From sequence record OZ035754.1: a DNA stretch of 44,622 bases. One strand, written 5' to 3'. Source of the DNA: Kagunavirus BCH953P1. Below, in pieces: positions 1-44,622 of this stretch. Within the stretch, counting starts at the first letter, position 1. Every line of letters begins with the position of its first letter. The notes under the pieces are model-generated. The model made no database searches, was not told the DNA's origin, and was given only the letters and a program-made list of their open reading frames with translations. A program made the translations under genes and the position numbers.

Positions 1-30
1 GTTAAGGCTGTTAAACCGGGGGGCGAGTAA
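1..30 (+). CDS. terminase small subunit, last 9 codons plus stop (continuation of the ORF that runs off the window end at 44622)
   Basis: Frame of the 44140..44622 ORF continues in phase into 1..27 (VKAVKPGGE) with TAA at 28-30 overlapping the ATG of the large terminase at 30 (TAATG); implies a circular or permuted molecule. Confidence 0.55.
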   Translation, partial: VKAVKPGGE

Positions 31-2769: not shown

Positions 2770-2790
2770 AGCCCCGAAAGGGGCTTTCTT
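2770..2790 (+). terminator. stem-loop after portal gene (agcccc-gaaa-ggggct then ttctt)
   Basis: GC stem with GAAA loop followed by a short T-rich run; seen directly. Confidence 0.3.
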
Positions 2791-2795
2791 ATAGT

Positions 2796-3872
2796 ATGCT
2801 ATTAACTTTAGCGCCACAGGGTTTATCTATGAGATTACTTACATCCCTAATCAGCCACCAGATTTGGCTGCAACGCACCGCATCGGGCGAAGTGAAAGAC
2901 CTTGCGCCTTTCATTAAGGAGATGCGGGACGAAATCAAACGGCAGGTGCTGCTGTTCGGTGACGATGGGCGTAGCACCGCGCGACTGAATAAACTGTTAC
3001 GCGACCTGGAAGAAGCACTGAGCGGACTTACGGGCGACTGGCAAACAAAGCTGACGGAAGACCTTAAGGAACTGGCGGAGTATGAAGCAGAGTGGAACGT
3101 AAAAACGCTGACGGCTAACGTTAACGCGGAATTTGTTACACCCGCCGCCGAGCAGGTGTGGTCCGCTGCCGAGTTTCAGCCTCTGTCGCTAAGCGACAAG
3201 CCTGTCGATTTCACCAAGCTGATGTCGGACTGGGGTGAAACGGAGGTTGCGCGCCTGGTAACTGGTGTTAAGATGGGTTTCGTACAAGGGCAAACCACAC
3301 GGCAGATTGTTAAGAATGTTGTAGGCGCTGGCGGACTGGCCGACATCTCAGAACGTAACGCAGCTACCGTAATCCGCACCGCGCTGTCGCACGTATCCAA
3401 CGAAGCCCGTAACGAGACGTACCGCCAGAACGACGACATCATCGAGAAATACGAATGGGTATCAACGCTGGACAGCCGTACCAGTACGATTTGCAGAGCC
3501 AGAGACGGAATGACGTGGGAAATCGGTAAAGGGCCGATGCCCCCCGCCCATCCGAACTGTCGATCGTGCACGGCACCGGTAATCAGTTCAGAGTTCGATT
3601 TCCTGGATAAAGGCGCGAAACGCGCAGCTAAGGGCGCAGAAGGTGGTACTCAGGTAAGCGCAGACACCACTTACTACGAGTTCCTGAAACAACAACCGGC
3701 ATGGTTTCAGGACCAGGCTCTCGGGCCAACCCGCGGTAAGATTTTCCGCAACAGCGGTATATCGCCGGAGGAGTTTCGCGTAATATCTGTAGATGGTTTC
3801 GGGAATCCGCTCACGCTTAAGCAGATGGCGGAACTCGATAAACGTGTTGCTGATTATCTGAAAGGGGAATAA
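2796..3872 (+). CDS. head morphogenesis protein (MuF / SPP1 gp7-like)
   Basis: 358 aa after portal; conserved gene order; start uncertain (alternative ATG at 2829). Confidence 0.65.
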   Translation: MLLTLAPQGLSMRLLTSLISHQIWLQRTASGEVKDLAPFIKEMRDEIKRQVLLFGDDGRSTARLNKLLRDLEEALSGLTGDWQTKLTEDLKELAEYEAEWNVKTLTANVNAEFVTPAAEQVWSAAEFQPLSLSDKPVDFTKLMSDWGETEVARLVTGVKMGFVQGQTTRQIVKNVVGAGGLADISERNAATVIRTALSHVSNEARNETYRQNDDIIEKYEWVSTLDSRTSTICRARDGMTWEIGKGPMPPAHPNCRSCTAPVISSEFDFLDKGAKRAAKGAEGGTQVSADTTYYEFLKQQPAWFQDQALGPTRGKIFRNSGISPEEFRVISVDGFGNPLTLKQMAELDKRVADYLKGE

Positions 3873-3955
3873 TGATGGGCTTTTTCAAAGTAACTGATTC
3901 CTAAGGGTAGAGGCGGTAAGCAAGGCGGCGAAGGTTACTAAGCCAGAATGATATG

Positions 3956-3985
3956 AGGCCCCGTTAAGGGGCCTTAGTTTTATTT
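3956..3985 (+). terminator. rho-independent terminator (aggcccc-gtta-aggggcct then T-rich)
   Basis: GC hairpin followed by tagttttattt; sits after the head morphogenesis gene and overlaps the 3' end of the minus-strand ORF 3964..4200. Confidence 0.55.
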
Positions 3986-4200
3986 AAAGAATATCGCGAA
4001 CTTCTTGTAACCCGCTGGCTCGTTGCGCTGACCATGTTCGATAGCAAAACGTTGAACGTTGTTAAAATCGTTCTCTTCCATACCGTCGGTGCAAAAGGTA
4101 AAAAAAAGTTACGTTTGTTTCCGATAAGCACACGGCTCGCAACATCAATGCTGTAAAGTTCTTCGATAGCGCGTACCACGTTTGCAGTAGCTTTGTTCAT
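3964..4200 (-). CDS. hypothetical small protein (78 aa as read; contains an internal A8/T8 homopolymer, alternative frame possible)
   Basis: Track ORF; reverse-oriented inside the structural block; preceded by conserved promoter P1; C-terminal half runs into the terminator hairpin. Confidence 0.4.
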   Translation of the reverse strand: MNKATANVVRAIEELYSIDVASRVLIGNKRNFFLPFAPTVWKRTILTTFNVLLSNMVSATSQRVTRSSRYSLNKTKAP

Positions 4201-4235
4201 TTCTAAATTCCTTATCTCTCGTTTCGATGTAATGA

Positions 4236-4264
4236 ATAGTACCCTATTATATTGGGGTGCGCAA
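4236..4264 (-). promoter_or_regulatory. sigma70-type promoter P1 (TTGCGC-N17-TACTAT), B-family
   Basis: On minus strand TTGCGCACCCCAATATAATAGGGTACTAT; identical over about 33 nt to the copy at 13781..13809; immediately upstream of the minus ORF 3964..4200. Confidence 0.6.
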
Positions 4265-4539
4265 ACTGTTTATTCACCTATTTCAGTTATTCCACTTGAT
4301 TGTAAATGTCGGAATAAACTATTCGAATAGTTGACTTTTCACTGAAAATATGATAAGCTCCACCTGAGCTTGTGAAGTATGAACAAGCGACCGCGGCGCG
4401 GGCAGGTAACGGAGCGGGACGTAAGTCCTGAGTGTAGTTACGCTGACGCGTTCGGAAGGGTCATACTATATTGCTTGTGTAAAAAGTAACTGGTTTACTG
4501 AGATTACGCCGTTTCTATGTTTAAATGATAAGGACTAGC

Positions 4540-4567
4540 GCCCCGCTTTACGGCGGGGCTTTACTTA
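4540..4567 (+). terminator. hairpin (gccccgc-tttacg-gcggggc) followed by tttactta
   Basis: Seen directly; lies just upstream of the spanin gene start. Confidence 0.4.
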
Positions 4568-4583
4568 TCGAGAAAGGAGAAAC

Positions 4584-4970
4584 ATGAATCTTAAAGCAAC
4601 TGTCGTAGCAGGAGCATGTTTCATCGTCCTGGCTTACGCACACGGCATCTACCAGTATCGCAGCGGCTGGAACGAAGGCCGGGCGAATCTCGTTTCGCAG
4701 CAACAGCAGAAGGCGCAGGCTGAGTTAGCGAAGAAAACACAACGGCAGCAGCAGGACGAATCAAAGGCTGCCGCTGCTGACAACGAAGGCAAGACGAAAT
4801 CAGAGGTGATTACCCGTGAAGTCGTTAAGTACATTAAAACGCCTGGCCGCAGCGTGTGCACTTTTGACCCTGAGCGCGTGCAGCTCAAGTCCCGCGCCGT
4901 CGCAAACGCAAATTCCATCCCCGGATACGACGATGATGCAGCCACCGTGCAAACTGGCACCGCCAAGTAG
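4584..4970 (+). CDS. i-spanin (Rz-like inner membrane spanin)
   Basis: 128 aa; N-terminal TM segment (VVAGACFIVLAYAHGIY), Q-rich coiled-coil middle; SD AAAGGAGA; contains the embedded o-spanin ORF. Confidence 0.65.
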   Translation: MNLKATVVAGACFIVLAYAHGIYQYRSGWNEGRANLVSQQQQKAQAELAKKTQRQQQDESKAAAADNEGKTKSEVITREVVKYIKTPGRSVCTFDPERVQLKSRAVANANSIPGYDDDAATVQTGTAK

Positions 4971-5079
4971 CGACGCTGACGAGGATTTGGCTATCGACGT
5001 TCAGAATGCCGAATGTGTACGGCAATTGAGACTGAAAGTGTTCATGTTGCAGGATTACGTGAGGAATATTCTGGAATAG
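4816..5079 (+). CDS. o-spanin (Rz1-like outer membrane lipoprotein), overlapping the i-spanin gene in another frame
   Basis: 87 aa; signal peptide with lipobox LTLSAC, proline-rich mature part; GTG start preceded by GAGGTG; overlapped Rz/Rz1 architecture. Confidence 0.6.
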   Translation: MKSLSTLKRLAAACALLTLSACSSSPAPSQTQIPSPDTTMMQPPCKLAPPSSDADEDLAIDVQNAECVRQLRLKVFMLQDYVRNILE

Positions 5080-5161
5080 TTGCCTTGCATGTTGGAATAA
5101 TTTATTCTTGACATGTAAATCCGGGTGGCCCGGATTCCAACGTCCAGGGGACATACTGACT

Positions 5162-5865: not shown

Positions 5866-6915
5866 ATGGCAATTACCACTATCGGCGATATCGTAACTGG
5901 CAACATCCCGGTCCTGGCGTCTTATATGACCGAGGACCCGGTAGAAAAAACCGCGTTCTTCCAGTCCGGTATTCTGACCCCGACTCCGTACGCCGCTGAG
6001 ATTGCCCGCGGCCCGTCAAACATCGCTAATATTCCTTTCTGGAAAGCGATTGATACGTCTATCGAACCTAACTACTCGAACGACGTATACCAGGACATCG
6101 CAACCCCTCGTAACGTGCAGACCGGTGAGATGATGGCGCGCGTAGCGTACCTGAACGAAGGTTTCGGCCAGGCGGACCTGACCGCTGAACTGACCAGTCA
6201 GAATCCGCTGCAATCTGTGGCTTCTCGCCTGGATAACTTCTGGCAGCGTCAGGCACAACGCCGTCTGATTGCCACCGCGCTCGGTCTGTACAACGACAAC
6301 GTAGCCGCTACCGATGAATACCATACGCGGAACGATATGGTTATCGACGTGTCTGCTTCTCTGGGCTTCGACGCTGGCGCATTCATCGACGCTACCCAGA
6401 CTATGGGCGATGCGCTGATGGGCAACGGCGGTGAAGTGCTGGGCGCTATCGCGATGCACAGCTTCGTTTATGCGCAGGCGCGTAAGCAGCAACTTATCGA
6501 CTTCATCAAAGACGCCGACAACGACACCTTGTTCGCCACCTACCAGGGCTACCGTGTGATTGTTGATGACAGCATGACTGTGGTCGGAACTGGCCTGAGC
6601 CGTAAGTTCATCTCCATCATCTTCGGCAACGGAGCTATCGGTTACGGTGAAGGCAATCCGTCTAACCCGCTGGAATACGAACGCGAAGCGTCTCGTGGTA
6701 ACGGCGGCGGCGTCGAAACCCTGTGGACCCGTAAGACCTGGCTGCTGCATCCATTCGGCTACAGCTTCACCAGTGCAGTAATCACCGGCAACGGCACCGA
6801 GACGGTCGCACGCTCCGCTTCCTGGCAGGACCTGGCGAACGCCTCTAACTGGAACCGCGTTGTTGAGCGTAAGCACGTACCGATTGCCTTCCTGGTAACT
6901 GGTGTAGGAGCTTAA
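5866..6915 (+). CDS. major capsid protein
   Basis: 349 aa, follows scaffold, followed by strong terminator; high-expression context. Confidence 0.8.
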   Translation: MAITTIGDIVTGNIPVLASYMTEDPVEKTAFFQSGILTPTPYAAEIARGPSNIANIPFWKAIDTSIEPNYSNDVYQDIATPRNVQTGEMMARVAYLNEGFGQADLTAELTSQNPLQSVASRLDNFWQRQAQRRLIATALGLYNDNVAATDEYHTRNDMVIDVSASLGFDAGAFIDATQTMGDALMGNGGEVLGAIAMHSFVYAQARKQQLIDFIKDADNDTLFATYQGYRVIVDDSMTVVGTGLSRKFISIIFGNGAIGYGEGNPSNPLEYEREASRGNGGGVETLWTRKTWLLHPFGYSFTSAVITGNGTETVARSASWQDLANASNWNRVVERKHVPIAFLVTGVGA

Positions 6916-6930
6916 GGTTAAGATATAATC

Positions 6931-6958
6931 GAGAGGGACTTCGGTCCCTCTTTTCATT
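6931..6958 (+). terminator. rho-independent terminator after capsid gene (gagagggac-ttcg-gtccctc then ttttcattt)
   Basis: Stem with TTCG tetraloop followed by T-run, seen directly. Confidence 0.65.
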
Positions 6959-11326: not shown

Positions 11327-11351
11327 AAGGCCCCTTTCGGGGCCTTTTTCT
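11327..11351. terminator. terminator hairpin between convergent genes (aggcccc-tttc-ggggcct then ttttc)
   Basis: Seen directly; separates the plus major tail gene from the minus-strand cassette. Confidence 0.6.
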
Positions 11352-21013: not shown

Positions 21014-22960
21014 ATGTCAAGCGGATGCGGTGACGTTTTATCGCTGGAAGATCTGAAAACGGCCAAGAAGCACCAGACCTTTGAGGCCGAAGTCATTACA
21101 GGGCGCGCAGGTGGTATATCATCCGGCGCGGAGATTGACTTTGCGACTAACCAGGTTACCGGACAAGTACAAAAAACTCTTCCGGCGATCCTGCGTGACA
21201 TGGGCTTTGACCCCGCGGCATTTGATTTCACCACCGGCGGCACTGTAACAGCACGTGACACCGTGGTTTACAATTCGGCGGATAATAACTGGTATTCGTG
21301 GGCGGGAGCGCTGCCGCATGTTGTTGTGCCGGGCACTGACCCGACGGCGGACAGTAACTGGAAACCGCGCACGGATCAGTTATTGCGGCAAAACCTGGCA
21401 TCATCCGTGATTCCGGGGACTTCGTTAGTGACCCACTCCGACGGTATTCCGCTTGATGATTATATAGAGATTTTTAACAGAAGAACTAAGTTTGTAATGC
21501 CCGAGGATTTTTCCGGCACTGACACCGAACAGTTACTGGCTGCAAACAGCTATGCGAAAGCAAATAGTGTTAACTTAGTTCTGCAACCAGGAAAGACATA
21601 TATCCTTACTGGTTCTACTGGCCTGGACATTGATTTAGGGTATTTTTCTTTTGGGTGTCCTTTTGGGCGTGCGGGTATCGACGCAACCGGTTTTACAGGT
21701 GATGCCCCGATATGGGTGCATTCCTCGGCGCCGTACTCCGTAGGTTATCGGGTGCATTCTAATATCATGCGCGGTGTATCAGTCGTTGGTAGCCTGAAAG
21801 GAACAGGGCAAGCAGGGATAATCATTGGTAATAAAAATAATAACGCCAATGGGACATATAACGGCGATTGCAACATAATGCATTGCAGTTTCAAAAACTT
21901 TGACAAATTACTATTAGCCACTAACTCAACTTGGCGTTATAAATTCACCGATTGCGGTTTTACCACAGAACTGACGGGAACAACGCACGCTATGCACTTC
22001 CCTTCGGGGCTTTCCGATTCTGGGGAGAGTATCAGTTTTGACAACTGTAAGATCTACGATACTAAGGGCGCTAAAATTCTGCTGGAATGCGCCAACTTCT
22101 CAATAGGTATGTCCGGCACATCCATCCTCAACTGCCCGGTAGAAATAACGGGCGCCGGTGCTTTAATAAATCTCGATAAAACCAGCAATATAGAGAATCC
22201 TGTAGCATCTGCATGGTATCGTTATGTTAAAGTTACGGGCGTGGGTGCTCGATTTAATTTTAACGGATGTACTATTGTCTGTAACAACATGTCTGTACAA
22301 ACACAGCCACTGTTTGAAGTTGGGCCAAATGCGTTTTTGGATTTCAGCCACGTTAAAATGCCGGGTAATAACTATCTTTTCCAGAACGGGACAGAAGGGC
22401 TAAGAACTTTTGTTGAGGGTGACGGATATGTTATCGCGACATCTGTCATCGCTGACATTGCTTCAGGAGCAGGAAATATTCCGCTACATAAATCATTAAA
22501 CCCTACCCGAAACTCAGGTTTTGAGACTGGTGATTTATCATCGTGGTCATTTAATAATCAGGGGTCTGCTAGTCAAACATGCGTAGTTGGTACAGCATAT
22601 AAGAAAACAGGTACCTATGGTGCGAGAATGACATCGTTCGGGTCATTAAGTTGTTTCTTAACTCAAAATGTAAAAGTAACACAGCATAATTATTACACGG
22701 TAACGTGCCAAATCAATACAATAACGGCAGGAGCAGGAACAACGGCAGGGGCGCTAACCGTTACATTTTACGATAGGGCTGGTAGCGCCATCCAATCAGG
22801 TGCAAGTAGTTCTTTTACTAATACACCTAGTGGATGGCAATCTGTAGGACAGTTCATACAAGGCCGAGTGCCGCAGGCCGCGGAATACTGCGAAGTGTCG
22901 ATACGCTGCCGTGAGGGTGCCGTTATTGACGTTGATAATTTTATTATTAATTTTACATAG
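21014..22960 (+). CDS. receptor-binding tail fiber / tailspike (possible beta-helix with C-terminal carbohydrate-binding region)
   Basis: 648 aa, last large late gene; SD AGAGGA; 3' two-thirds visibly AT-richer than the rest of the genome. Confidence 0.6.
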   Translation: MSSGCGDVLSLEDLKTAKKHQTFEAEVITGRAGGISSGAEIDFATNQVTGQVQKTLPAILRDMGFDPAAFDFTTGGTVTARDTVVYNSADNNWYSWAGALPHVVVPGTDPTADSNWKPRTDQLLRQNLASSVIPGTSLVTHSDGIPLDDYIEIFNRRTKFVMPEDFSGTDTEQLLAANSYAKANSVNLVLQPGKTYILTGSTGLDIDLGYFSFGCPFGRAGIDATGFTGDAPIWVHSSAPYSVGYRVHSNIMRGVSVVGSLKGTGQAGIIIGNKNNNANGTYNGDCNIMHCSFKNFDKLLLATNSTWRYKFTDCGFTTELTGTTHAMHFPSGLSDSGESISFDNCKIYDTKGAKILLECANFSIGMSGTSILNCPVEITGAGALINLDKTSNIENPVASAWYRYVKVTGVGARFNFNGCTIVCNNMSVQTQPLFEVGPNAFLDFSHVKMPGNNYLFQNGTEGLRTFVEGDGYVIATSVIADIASGAGNIPLHKSLNPTRNSGFETGDLSSWSFNNQGSASQTCVVGTAYKKTGTYGARMTSFGSLSCFLTQNVKVTQHNYYTVTCQINTITAGAGTTAGALTVTFYDRAGSAIQSGASSSFTNTPSGWQSVGQFIQGRVPQAAEYCEVSIRCREGAVIDVDNFIINFT

Positions 22961-23214: not shown

Positions 23215-23343
23215 CTAGCACCTTGCACATTTCCTGACCGGCTTCTGGCACATTTTAACCGGAGTGACCGCCGTGGCGAAACCGGCATACGAGCAGCCCA
23301 GAACGGCGGCCAGAGTAATCGCGACAGCGGTAATACGATTCAT
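23215..23343 (-). CDS. hypothetical small lipoprotein-like peptide (42 aa)
   Basis: Read from sequence; N-terminus MNRITAVAITLAAVLGC resembles a signal peptide with lipobox; weak. Confidence 0.25.
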   Translation of the reverse strand: MNRITAVAITLAAVLGCSYAGFATAVTPVKMCQKPVRKCARC

Positions 23344-40323: not shown

Positions 40324-40632
40324 TTGGATAAATTTACTGAAACAGTGACAGGCTGGCTTCTCGCTGCCGCGCTAGCCGGAGGGGTAATCGGACTACGACA
40401 ACATAAGTCCGTTATTTCTGGCCCTATCGACGGATTCTGCTTTATCGCAATGGGCTTCACTTGCGCCGTATTTGGAGCACCTCTCGCAGCTCAATGGTTC
40501 GGTATCACGGGCGACCGTGAAATCGCGGGCCTGGGCTTCATTATCGCCGTTCTCTGGATGCCTATCTATTCCCGTCTCTCCGGTATCGTCGCCGGAGAAT
40601 ACATCGCACGTCGAGGAGGCCCAGATGAATGA
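40324..40632 (+). CDS. putative holin (membrane protein, TTG start)
   Basis: 102 aa with about three hydrophobic segments; GGAGGA 6 nt upstream of TTG; immediately upstream of endolysin. Confidence 0.5.
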   Translation: MDKFTETVTGWLLAAALAGGVIGLRQHKSVISGPIDGFCFIAMGFTCAVFGAPLAAQWFGITGDREIAGLGFIIAVLWMPIYSRLSGIVAGEYIARRGGPDE

Positions 40633-40897
40633 GTTATTCTGGTTCGGTGGTATGCTGGCAATCGGAGGCACATCGCTGTTTAATGTGTACCATCCGAGTA
40701 TTGACGACGGGCTATTTGGCCGGGTGCTCTATATCCTGACTGCTATCGTCTGCGCTGCCGGATGTATCCACCTGTTACAGGGCAGCATGTCGCCAACGCT
40801 GCCTGAGACATTAATCACATTAGTTGCGCTGCGCCAGATTCGCCAGGCGTGGCTGGCATACGGAGGACATAAGCGTGTCTCGAAACATTTCAGATAA
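40625..40897 (+). CDS. second small membrane protein of the lysis cassette (holin/antiholin-like)
   Basis: 90 aa, two hydrophobic segments; start at internal ATG of track ORF 40472..40897. Confidence 0.45.
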   Translation: MNELFWFGGMLAIGGTSLFNVYHPSIDDGLFGRVLYILTAIVCAAGCIHLLQGSMSPTLPETLITLVALRQIRQAWLAYGGHKRVSKHFR

Positions 40898-41363
40898 TGG
40901 ATTGCATTTCACCGCCGCGTTTGAGGGGTTCCGCGGAACTGCGTACCGCGCTACGCCGAACGAGAAGTACCTGACCATAGGCTACGGTCACTACGGACCG
41001 GACGTAACACCTGGCAAGACCATCACGCCAGGTCAGGGCCTCCTGTTACTGAATCGCGATATGGCTAAGGCCGTAGCTGCGGTTGATGCGGCGGCGCACC
41101 ATTCACTGACGCAGGCGCAGTTTGATGCTGTGTGCGACCTGGTCTATAACGCGGGTGCTGGTGTGATTGCCGCTACTACCGGCACGGGCAAGGCGCTGCG
41201 TTCTGGAGATGTTACGACACTGCGGGCCAAGCTGGCGCTGTTCATCAACCAGAACGGCAAACCGTTACTCGGCCTGCGTCGCCGTACCGCCGGTCGTCTG
41301 GCTCTGTTCGACGGCAAACCATGGCAAGAGGCAGAGGCTATCGGGCGCGCGGTGAAAGGTTGA
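40875..41363 (+). CDS. endolysin, T4/lambda-type lysozyme (glycoside hydrolase family 24)
   Basis: Catalytic-region motif FEGFRGTAY...TIGYGH; GTG start with GGAGGA 7 nt upstream (track ORF starts 40824). Confidence 0.75.
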   Translation: MSRNISDNGLHFTAAFEGFRGTAYRATPNEKYLTIGYGHYGPDVTPGKTITPGQGLLLLNRDMAKAVAAVDAAAHHSLTQAQFDAVCDLVYNAGAGVIAATTGTGKALRSGDVTTLRAKLALFINQNGKPLLGLRRRTAGRLALFDGKPWQEAEAIGRAVKG

Positions 41364-44139: not shown

Positions 44140-44622
44140 ATGAAGCTGAAACTCAAGCAGCCATCGCCAGAGGTGGTGCAAGCTGCACATGAAGAAGCTG
44201 TTAGCGCGAACCGTCGCCGTAAACGACCGCGCGGTAAACAGAGCCTTTATCAATCGTCCCGTAATTCCGCCGCGTTGTGGGACCCGGATTATTGCGACGC
44301 GTTAATCGAGTTCTTCGACCGCACGTCATGGGAACTTGTGCCCACGTCTAAGGGTGACGAACGCCCGCTGATTCAGGATAAACCGCCGTCGCTAGCCCGC
44401 TTCGCCTTACATATTGGCGTCACTATCCCGATTATTAAGCTGTGGCTGCGCGAGATTCCCGCATTTGCAGAAGCCTGGGAGACAGCACAGGCACTGGAAG
44501 AGGCATACTTCACTGAGACAGGGGCCGCTGGCATCTCTGCTACGTTTGCCGCTGCGAAGCTGGGCCTGAATAAGAAAGAAGAATCGACTGGCGAGGGTTC
44601 TGAACCTATCGAGATTCGTTTC
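44140..44622 (+). CDS. terminase small subunit (N-terminal 161 codons; ORF runs off the window end and continues at 1..30)
   Basis: SD AAGGGGA before ATG 44140; HTH-like segment; no stop before window end; in-phase continuation at window start ending in TAATG overlap with the large terminase. Confidence 0.65.
   Translation, partial: MKLKLKQPSPEVVQAAHEEAVSANRRRKRPRGKQSLYQSSRNSAALWDPDYCDALIEFFDRTSWELVPTSKGDERPLIQDKPPSLARFALHIGVTIPIIKLWLREIPAFAEAWETAQALEEAYFTETGAAGISATFAAAKLGLNKKEESTGEGSEPIEIRF

Follow-up and report, generated by a model that had tools for sequence, protein, structure and literature searches.

A predicted Jersey-family spanin pair encoded among the head genes of Kagunavirus BCH953P1, apart from its holin and endolysin genes

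The 'Jersey' i-spanin and o-spanin families, as defined by Kongari et al. (2018, PMC6139136), include the proteins of phages Jersey, SETP3, K1G, K1H, K1ind1-3, HK578 and others. According to the same paper, the two Jersey spanin genes overlap by 155 bp and Cys45 and Cys67 of the o-spanin are constant; in the FSL_SP-031 subgroup the overlap is 8 bp. Such pairs are also annotated in public databases. The GenBank record of K1G, the type Kagunavirus, lists ORF5 (387 nt) and ORF6 (264 nt) as putative spanins at the same location as the pair described here, and the RefSeq record of SETP3 (gp07/gp08) and those of the BASEL phages carry the spanin annotation as in K1G. The separation of the spanin genes from the lysis cassette has been stated in print in the genome announcement of phage Schulenberg (PMC6763661), and the gene numbering of Jerseyvirus SeF1 (PMC9409062) implies it as well.

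Three further systems provide points of comparison for the spanin pair of the window, a term used below for the whole 44,622-nt stretch of DNA that was analysed. Phage lambda Rz/Rz1 resembles this pair in having an N-terminally anchored inner-membrane protein, a helical periplasmic domain and periplasmic cysteines, and lambda Rz1, like the window o-spanin, is an outer-membrane lipoprotein translated in the +1 frame from the same DNA. However, the Rz1 gene is fully embedded and its mature product has 40 aa and no predicted helix, whereas the window o-spanin gene is overlapped and its mature product has 66 aa and a predicted C-terminal helix. The lambda genes also follow S and R immediately within the lysis cassette, in contrast to the window spanins, which are found 7.8 kb away among head genes. 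The LysB/LysC pair of P2 shares the overlapped architecture (PMC6139136); the P2 LysC model (NF038368, P2_Rz1) matched the window o-spanin below threshold (15 bits, E 0.02; curated cut-off 27). The PseT.3/PseT.2 pair of T4, as described in PMC6139136, is likewise two-component and has an o-spanin with two periplasmic cysteines and a predicted C-terminal helix, but its genes have the separated architecture, its i-spanin has no cysteine, and there is no detectable sequence similarity to the window pair.

The locus is interpreted as encoding a two-component spanin of the published Jersey family, and the whole reading, including the mechanism outlined below, is assigned a probability of roughly 0.93. 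Direct observation covers the two ORFs and their sorting signals as well as family membership, conservation and synteny. The window i-spanin is 94% identical to K1G ORF5 ('putative spanin') and the o-spanin is 93% identical to K1G ORF6 ('putative spanin; overlapping gene'); in alignments, identity is 60-68% to the SETP3 spanins and 40-43% to a Dhillonvirus pair. The Jersey-family pairs of K1G, SETP3, Jersey and HK578 share with the window pair the gene lengths of 387 and 264 nt, the 155-nt overlap, Cys45 and Cys67, and the placement between head-morphogenesis and scaffold genes. No substantive difference from these pairs was found; the phage only lacks a Hoc-like gene that most relatives carry just upstream. 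The 8-nt overlap of the FSL_SP-031 subgroup also has a counterpart, in phage SenTO17. The pair, its family, its overlap geometry and its distance from the holin-endolysin cassette are already annotated (K1G, SETP3 and BASEL phages in GenBank/RefSeq) and published (Kongari et al. 2018; the Schulenberg announcement), so the finding is an ordinary one and nothing in it is new.

Profile searches place the pair outside the lambda families. Neither spanin matched lambda Rz (PF03245) or Rz1 (PF06085) in Pfam, even at E <= 0.1, and the designation 'Rz/Rz1-like' consequently denotes architecture and role rather than homology. A sub-threshold Pfam match to DUF2514 reached 16.9 bits (cut-off 26). In sequence searches of Pfam, NCBIfam and the PDB, neither protein matched a family above threshold or a solved structure.

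The sequence is the complete genome, in circularly permuted form, of an E. coli phage of the genus Kagunavirus (subfamily Guernseyvirinae). Its spanin region is 99.9% identical, along the full length, to Kagunavirus BCH953P1, whose record has the same end points as the window, and 94-95% identical to that of many E. coli Kagunaviruses. The features considered here are collected in Table 1. The genome junction falls inside an ORF, named small terminase subunit from the annotation of relatives, that runs uninterrupted across it (...EPIEIRF at one end continuing as VKAVKPGGE and a stop codon at the other); the two ends are therefore contiguous, physically continuous DNA. Lysis cassette, terminase, portal, head-morphogenesis, spanin, scaffold and capsid genes are all on the + strand, with the spanins downstream of the holin-holin-endolysin cassette. 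The ATG of the second holin gene overlaps the stop codon of the first, and its phrog_2508 match covers residues 52-141 of a longer ORF. The start of the endolysin gene was inferred from the length of its Bas70 counterpart (489 nt), and hydropathy analysis showed no hydrophobic segment at the endolysin N-terminus. A genome-wide six-frame lipobox scan, in which a second or unimolecular spanin was sought, yielded no other spanin-like candidate. The only other convincing lipoprotein signal belongs to a 42-aa ORF (23215..23343), which has no C-terminal membrane anchor.

Table 1. Coordinates of the spanin locus, its flanking elements and the lysis genes in the window.
Feature	Position	Strand	Basis or remarks
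Head morphogenesis gene	2796..3872	+	phrog_241
Variable spacer between head-morphogenesis gene and spanins, 711 nt	3873..4583	.	local BLAST against relatives
Strong terminator-like hairpin, 9 pairs, -18.5 kcal/mol, T-rich tail	3954..3976	+	terminator scan; fold z-score -4.1
Minus-strand ORF in upstream spacer	3964..4200	-	
Small ORF in upstream spacer	4379..4489	+	
GC-rich stem-loop, 8 pairs, -17 kcal/mol, followed by TTTACTTAT	4540..4559	+	terminator scan; fold z-score -2.9
i-spanin Shine-Dalgarno AAGGAG, 4 nt before ATG	4574..4579	+	sequence
i-spanin gene, ATG start, 128 aa	4584..4970	+	ORF; phrog_2536
o-spanin Shine-Dalgarno GAGGTG, 7 nt before GTG, inside i-spanin gene	4803..4808	+	sequence
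o-spanin gene, GTG start, 87-aa precursor, +1 frame	4816..5079	+	ORF; PHROGs
Conserved spacer from o-spanin stop to scaffold ATG, 82 nt	5080..5161	+	alignment, Kagunavirus and Jerseyvirus
Promoter-like TTGCCT and TATTCT, 17-nt spacing	5080..5085 and 5103..5108	+	both hexamers invariant, spacing sequence variable
Hairpin AATCCGGG-TGG-CCCGGATT	5118..5136	+	flanks covary, AAT/ATT vs ACA/TGT
AGGGGA in downstream spacer	5146..5151	+	
Scaffold gene, true ATG	5162	+	phrog_206
Major capsid gene	5866..6915	+	
Holin, 102 aa, TTG start, about 3 hydrophobic segments	40324..40632	+	phrog_2359 holin, E 5.8e-28; hydropathy
Second holin or antiholin, 90 aa, 2 hydrophobic segments	40625..40897	+	phrog_2508 holin, E 2.2e-32; hydropathy
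Soluble GH24-type endolysin, 162 aa, GTG 40875	about 40875..41363	+	PF00959 phage lysozyme, 94 bits (cut-off 22.3)

The initial annotation had proposed an overlapping spanin pair at 4584-5079, flanked by head-morphogenesis and scaffold genes, with a holin, a second membrane protein and a GH24 endolysin at 40324..41363, so that the lysis module would be split over about 8 kb across the junction. These proposals hold. Both spanin ORFs are present at these positions, match PHROGs profiles named 'Rz-like spanin' and have homologs in K1G; the neighbouring and lysis genes are identified by the matches in Table 1. The distance from the endolysin stop codon to the i-spanin ATG is 7842 nt of contiguous DNA, and the same split recurs in Jerseyvirus, in other Guernseyvirinae and in Dhillonvirus, including Bas70 and Dhillonvirus PaulFeyerabend, in whose whole-genome annotations the holin-holin-endolysin genes are separated from the spanins.

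The i-spanin matches phrog_2536 ('Rz-like spanin') over its full length (residues 1-128, E 5.5e-57), and an AAAGG(A/G)G block at its Shine-Dalgarno sequence is conserved in 9 phages. The transmembrane segment claimed for it earlier was recovered by hydropathy analysis as a single hydrophobic segment near residues 1-23, with Lys4 ahead of the hydrophobic stretch; the N-terminal, N-in anchor expected of an i-spanin is placed at about residues 5-23. Beyond residue 23 the protein is polar and includes a Gln/Ala/Lys-rich segment. Conservation was assessed over 12 loci from Kagunavirus, Jerseyvirus, unclassified Guernseyvirinae (Klebsiella 37P2, SenTO17) and Dhillonvirus. The i-spanin alignment from these 12 phages contains 24 invariant columns. 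The periplasmic cysteines expected of spanins are present in both proteins, with i-spanin Cys92 retained in 11/12 loci and o-spanin Cys45 and Cys67 in 12/12. An AlphaFold model of the i-spanin shows one helix at residues 3-63 (pLDDT 73-86) and an unresolved C-terminal half. The models of both spanins were built from single sequences, are of low confidence outside the helices and are used at the level of secondary structure only. The i-spanin is thus predicted to consist of an N-terminal membrane anchor, a long periplasmic helix and a C-terminal domain with Cys92.

The o-spanin gene shares 155 nt with the i-spanin gene and extends 109 nt beyond its stop codon. Consequently, it belongs to the 'overlapped' class and not to the 'embedded' class, and the description of the gene as embedded in the initial annotation had to be corrected. 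The context of its GAGGTG ribosome-binding sequence is the same in Bas70, XY1 and LSPA1, and reads GAGGTA in G AB-2017; in SETP3 the codon homologous to the GTG start is ATG, and RefSeq gp08 starts there. The protein begins MKSLSTLKRLAAACALLTLSAC; its n-region is basic (K2, K8, R9) and precedes a hydrophobic core and the lipobox L19-S-A-C22. This signal fits a PROSITE PS51257-style pattern rule for lipoproteins cleaved by signal peptidase II, as expected of an o-spanin, with Cys22 encoded at 4879..4881 and with Ser, which is not an inner-membrane retention residue, at position +2. The lipobox and the Pro-rich character proposed at the outset are thus both borne out, since the mature protein contains 8 Pro in its 66 residues in addition to Cys45 and Cys67. 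In PHROGs, the o-spanin matches 'Rz-like spanin' profiles phrog_1267 (E 8e-21) and phrog_5672 (E 4e-30). The AlphaFold model contains a helix at 4-22, a disordered Pro-rich stretch at 23-53 and a helix at 54-86 (pLDDT 80-90). The secondary structure predicted for the two proteins agrees with their assignment as spanins.

Judged from gene order in the genomes compared, the placement of spanins beside head genes is ancient and has been conserved in Guernseyvirinae and Dhillonvirus. In Dhillonvirus the start of the i-spanin gene overlaps the minor-capsid gene by 8 nt, so that a direct link to a head gene probably came first. The content of the region upstream of the spanins varies between phages. 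Most Kagunaviruses have a Hoc-like gene at the site of the spacer 3873..4583, which local BLAST indicates to be deleted in the window, and the annotations of Bas70, K1G, S100, LSPA1 and SETP3 place there a Hoc-like gene, a methyltransferase or hypothetical genes. This arrangement is of practical relevance for the engineering of Kagunavirus and Jerseyvirus therapeutic phages, as a lysis function lies inside the head module and beside a hotspot of variable cargo.

Co-transcription of the spanins with head genes, notably with the downstream ones, is plausible on the basis of gene order and strand, and it is probably modulated. No terminator-like site was seen between the spanins and the scaffold gene, and transcription could plausibly read through from one to the other. 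Co-transcription with the upstream head genes would require read-through of two hairpins. In a temporal transcriptome of a Guernseyvirinae phage (PMC12645636), lysozyme, a Mu-F-like head protein and the capsid protein fall into one expression class; the paper makes no mention of spanins or of transcript boundaries. The most serious competing explanation concerns only the regulation proposed in the initial annotation and not the identity of the genes. It holds that the spanins form a separately tuned unit expressed at a low level, with upstream transcription largely terminated or attenuated at 3954..3976 and 4540..4559 and with the scaffold and capsid genes served by a promoter of their own in 5080..5161. 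This explanation is possible, although somewhat less likely than even, and the elements on both sides of the spanin genes bear on it.

On the upstream side, separate tuning is favoured by the interval from the head-morphogenesis gene to the i-spanin gene, which contains two terminator-like hairpins and an antisense ORF. The hairpin at 3954..3976 follows the head-morphogenesis gene, and the stem-loop at 4540..4559 ends 24 nt before the i-spanin ATG. Pairing in the latter is preserved in Jerseyvirus by compensatory changes at two stem positions, GCCCCGC/GCGGGGC being replaced by GCCCGGC/GCCGGGC in SETP3 and S532 and by GCCCGAC/GTCGGGC in Kenya-K25, which also favours separate tuning. However, the T-tract after this stem is weak and in Jerseyvirus poor or decayed, and the interval from the hairpin to the i-spanin ribosome-binding site is too short to hold a promoter, which means that spanin mRNA must traverse the hairpin. 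Similar hairpins follow the portal and capsid genes, as would be expected of leaky terminators within one long late transcript, and the Dhillonvirus gene overlap points to direct co-transcription there. The stem-loop at 4540..4559 is possibly a leaky terminator or an RNA-stability element. Searches of the whole 44,622-nt sequence with Rfam (gathering thresholds) and with tRNA scans gave no matches, and the conserved hairpins are therefore not known RNA families.

On the downstream side, the spacer 5080..5161 has a mean column identity of 89% across Kagunavirus and Jerseyvirus, compared with about 79% for coding DNA. Its invariant TTGCCT and TATTCT hexamers around a variable 17-nt spacing, followed by the covarying hairpin, suggest that transcription of the scaffold and capsid genes may start from a separate promoter, which is a further point in favour of separate tuning. 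On the other hand, the promoter-like element agrees with the consensus at only 8/12 positions and was not called by the scan. The conserved element at 5080..5110 was also considered as a shared late promoter and further copies in the genome were sought; it occurs once and the idea was dropped. Plausible co-transcription with modulation remains the preferred reading of the regulation. It is unlikely, but conceivable, that the covarying stem-loop on the 5' side and the promoter-like element with hairpin on the 3' side act as a conserved regulatory bracket, which could fix the amount of spanin made separately from the holin-endolysin cassette and delimit a transcript within the head module. The bracketed site might even be a remnant of an ancestral late-operon start. 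Such a bracket, if true, would add a minor layer of regulation to a known system and would not constitute a new one.

The mechanism proposed for the pair follows the general scheme for two-component spanins. The N-terminal helix of the 128-aa i-spanin would anchor it in the inner membrane, with a largely helical domain reaching into the periplasm. The 87-aa o-spanin would be exported, cleaved by signal peptidase II, lipid-modified at Cys22 and, given Ser at +2, sorted to the outer membrane. Through a Pro-rich linker and a C-terminal helix it would then contact the C-terminal domain of the i-spanin, forming a bridge across the periplasm that is probably stabilised by disulfides involving i-spanin Cys92 and o-spanin Cys45 and Cys67. 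These complexes would be held in the mesh of the cell wall until the holin and endolysin act. Once the two holin-type proteins had breached the inner membrane and the cell wall had been degraded by the soluble GH24 endolysin, the freed complexes would disrupt the outer membrane and release the progeny, by membrane fusion according to the current lambda model. Expression would most likely depend on same-strand transcription of the structural genes, with the upstream hairpin as a modulator. It is from the lambda and T4 paradigms, as summarised in PMC6139136, that the complex, its disulfides and the fusion step are inferred.

A different role for the same two proteins is very improbable. The pair could consist of envelope proteins with a non-lysis function, such as superinfection exclusion or head assembly at the membrane, and its place in the head module would then reflect that function. 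The distance from the holin and endolysin genes would fit such a role, as would the lack of Pfam homology to lambda Rz/Rz1. Moreover, the literature searched contained no experimental work on spanins of the Jersey family, and the functional assignment consequently rests on architecture and analogy. However, the working spanins of T4, PseT.3/PseT.2, are likewise unlinked from its holin (t) and endolysin (e). The genome also encodes a canonical holin and a soluble endolysin and contains no other spanin candidate. Furthermore, the combination of an anchored helical protein, an out-of-frame overlapping lipoprotein and conserved periplasmic cysteines corresponds to the spanin signature (PMC6139136).

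The reality of the o-spanin reading frame was examined separately. Each of the 12 loci has, in the +1 frame, a start codon as well as a hydrophobic leader with a lipobox cysteine. The leaders themselves are divergent, and the lipobox appears as LSAC, LASC, LNGC, LSGC or VTGC; the Asn at position -2 in some Jerseyvirus o-spanins (LNGC) is less canonical. Across the same loci P44, C45, C67 and the block D-x-D-x-DL...DV-N..C..LR..V..LQ..R are invariant, and the C-terminal 45 residues of the o-spanin are the best-conserved part of either protein. The +1 frame is open in all relatives, but in a control an antisense frame likewise proved free of stops, over 99-142 codons, in each of the nine phages used for codon analysis. 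Openness of the frame is thus not decisive, and the switch in codon phase was used instead. Pairwise differences at codon positions 1/2/3 were determined in a gap-free alignment of the nine phages. Ahead of the overlap, substitutions peak at the third codon position of the i-spanin (0.17/0.14/0.34), and past the i-spanin stop codon they switch to the phase of the o-spanin (0.13/0.05/0.32). It is hardly credible, therefore, that only the i-spanin-like gene is real and that the +1-frame ORF, inside this gene and past its end, is open by accident: long alternative-frame ORFs do arise by chance at this locus, as the antisense frame demonstrates, and many records hold only a short fragment of the ORF, but this explanation accounts neither for substitutions that obey the +1 phase past the i-spanin stop, nor for the higher conservation of the C-terminal 45 residues, nor for the maintenance of signal peptide, lipobox cysteine, Shine-Dalgarno sequence and start codon across genera, nor for SenTO17, where an overlap of just 8 nt makes the o-spanin ORF virtually a separate gene.

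The o-spanin ORF is incompletely annotated in many public records. These annotate only a 41-48-aa fragment, and the phrog_5672 profile, like many records, represents a truncated o-spanin that begins at an internal Met and lacks the lipoprotein signal. The GTG at 4816 is a better call for the start codon than this internal Met.

The outer component of the spanin pair is often shortened in public databases. In many GenBank and RefSeq records, the o-spanin is annotated as a fragment of 41-48 aa that begins at an internal methionine and includes neither the signal peptide nor the lipobox. The PHROG profile phrog_5672, which is 47 positions long, appears to have been built from such truncated calls. 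A labelling problem of another kind is found in the S532 record, where the names of the i-spanin and the o-spanin are interchanged. The coordinates of the shortened calls, together with those of the other features discussed below, are collected in the table.

Features of the window and of relatives' spanin loci (L numbers)
Feature	Source	Coordinates	Strand	Remarks
Shortened o-spanin call	L001	4495..4638
Shortened o-spanin call	L005	1850..1996
Shortened o-spanin call	L006	1850..1996
Shortened o-spanin call	L007	1871..1996
Shortened o-spanin call	L008	1871..1996
Shortened o-spanin call	L010	1853..1996
SenTO17 spanin locus	L011	1417..2089		i-/o-spanin overlap only 8 nt
PaulFeyerabend (Dhillonvirus) spanin locus	L003	3357..3798		overlap 98 nt
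GC-rich stem-loop	window	4540..4559		24 nt before i-spanin ATG
78-aa ORF	window	3964..4200	-	weak phrog_7673 match; also in BCH953P1
GC-rich terminator-like hairpin	window	2770..2785		short gap after portal gene
GC-rich terminator-like hairpin	window	6931..6952		short gap after major capsid gene
GC-rich terminator-like hairpin	window	11327..11346		bidirectional; short gap after last gene of first structural block
42-aa ORF (MNRITAVAITLAAVLGCSYAGF...)	window	23215..23343	-	Shine-Dalgarno CAGGAG; lipobox LGC, Cys17

This single spanin family occurs in several gene architectures, as illustrated by SenTO17 and the Dhillonviruses. The SenTO17 i-spanin has a shorter C-terminus; with so small an overlap the two genes are effectively separated, and the true i-spanin start probably lies 28 codons downstream of the annotated one. 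The start of the i-spanin overlaps the minor-capsid gene in Dhillonvirus. An open antisense frame of 99-142 codons also runs across the spanin locus in all nine phages compared (the window, at 4649..4966 on the minus strand, and L001, L002 and L005-L010). This frame probably reflects codon usage and not a gene, and it serves as a warning that conservation of an ORF is by itself unsafe as evidence.

Pairing in the stem-loop preceding the i-spanin is maintained across Guernseyvirinae through compensatory changes at two stem positions; the T-tract downstream of it is not conserved. In the spacer between the o-spanin and the scaffold gene (5080..5161), column identity between Kagunavirus and Jerseyvirus reaches 89%, exceeding that of the flanking coding DNA. 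The spacer contains an invariant TTGCCT-17 nt-TATTCT arrangement and a hairpin (5118..5136) with covarying flanks, and the element occurs once in the genome. It may represent a promoter and the 5' stem-loop of the scaffold/capsid mRNA. The three terminator-like hairpins listed in the table suggest that late transcription is punctuated and leaky.

Comparison with relatives identifies the stretch that separates the head-morphogenesis gene from the spanins (3873..4583) as a hotspot of variable content. About 370 nt of a Hoc-like gene that is present in other Kagunaviruses, and is labelled "fibritin" or "putative tail protein" there, are missing from both the window phage and BCH953P1, which carry a different ORF, the minus-strand one of 78 aa. 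The equivalent site holds a methyltransferase in S100 and other small genes in LSPA1 and Bas70.

The 42-aa ORF, which has a good Shine-Dalgarno sequence and a clean lipobox, lies a short distance downstream of the tailspike gene (21014..22960) and is convergent with it. Its product is a candidate small outer-membrane lipoprotein; an NCBIfam search returned no matches. A unimolecular spanin was ruled out because the C-terminal membrane anchor is absent. By analogy with T5 Llp, the candidate could perhaps serve in receptor blocking or superinfection exclusion.

Finally, the small-terminase reading frame is continuous across the window ends (44200..44622 joined to 1..29), and the record was therefore linearised within this gene, whose stop codon is overlapped by the large-terminase ATG at position 30.
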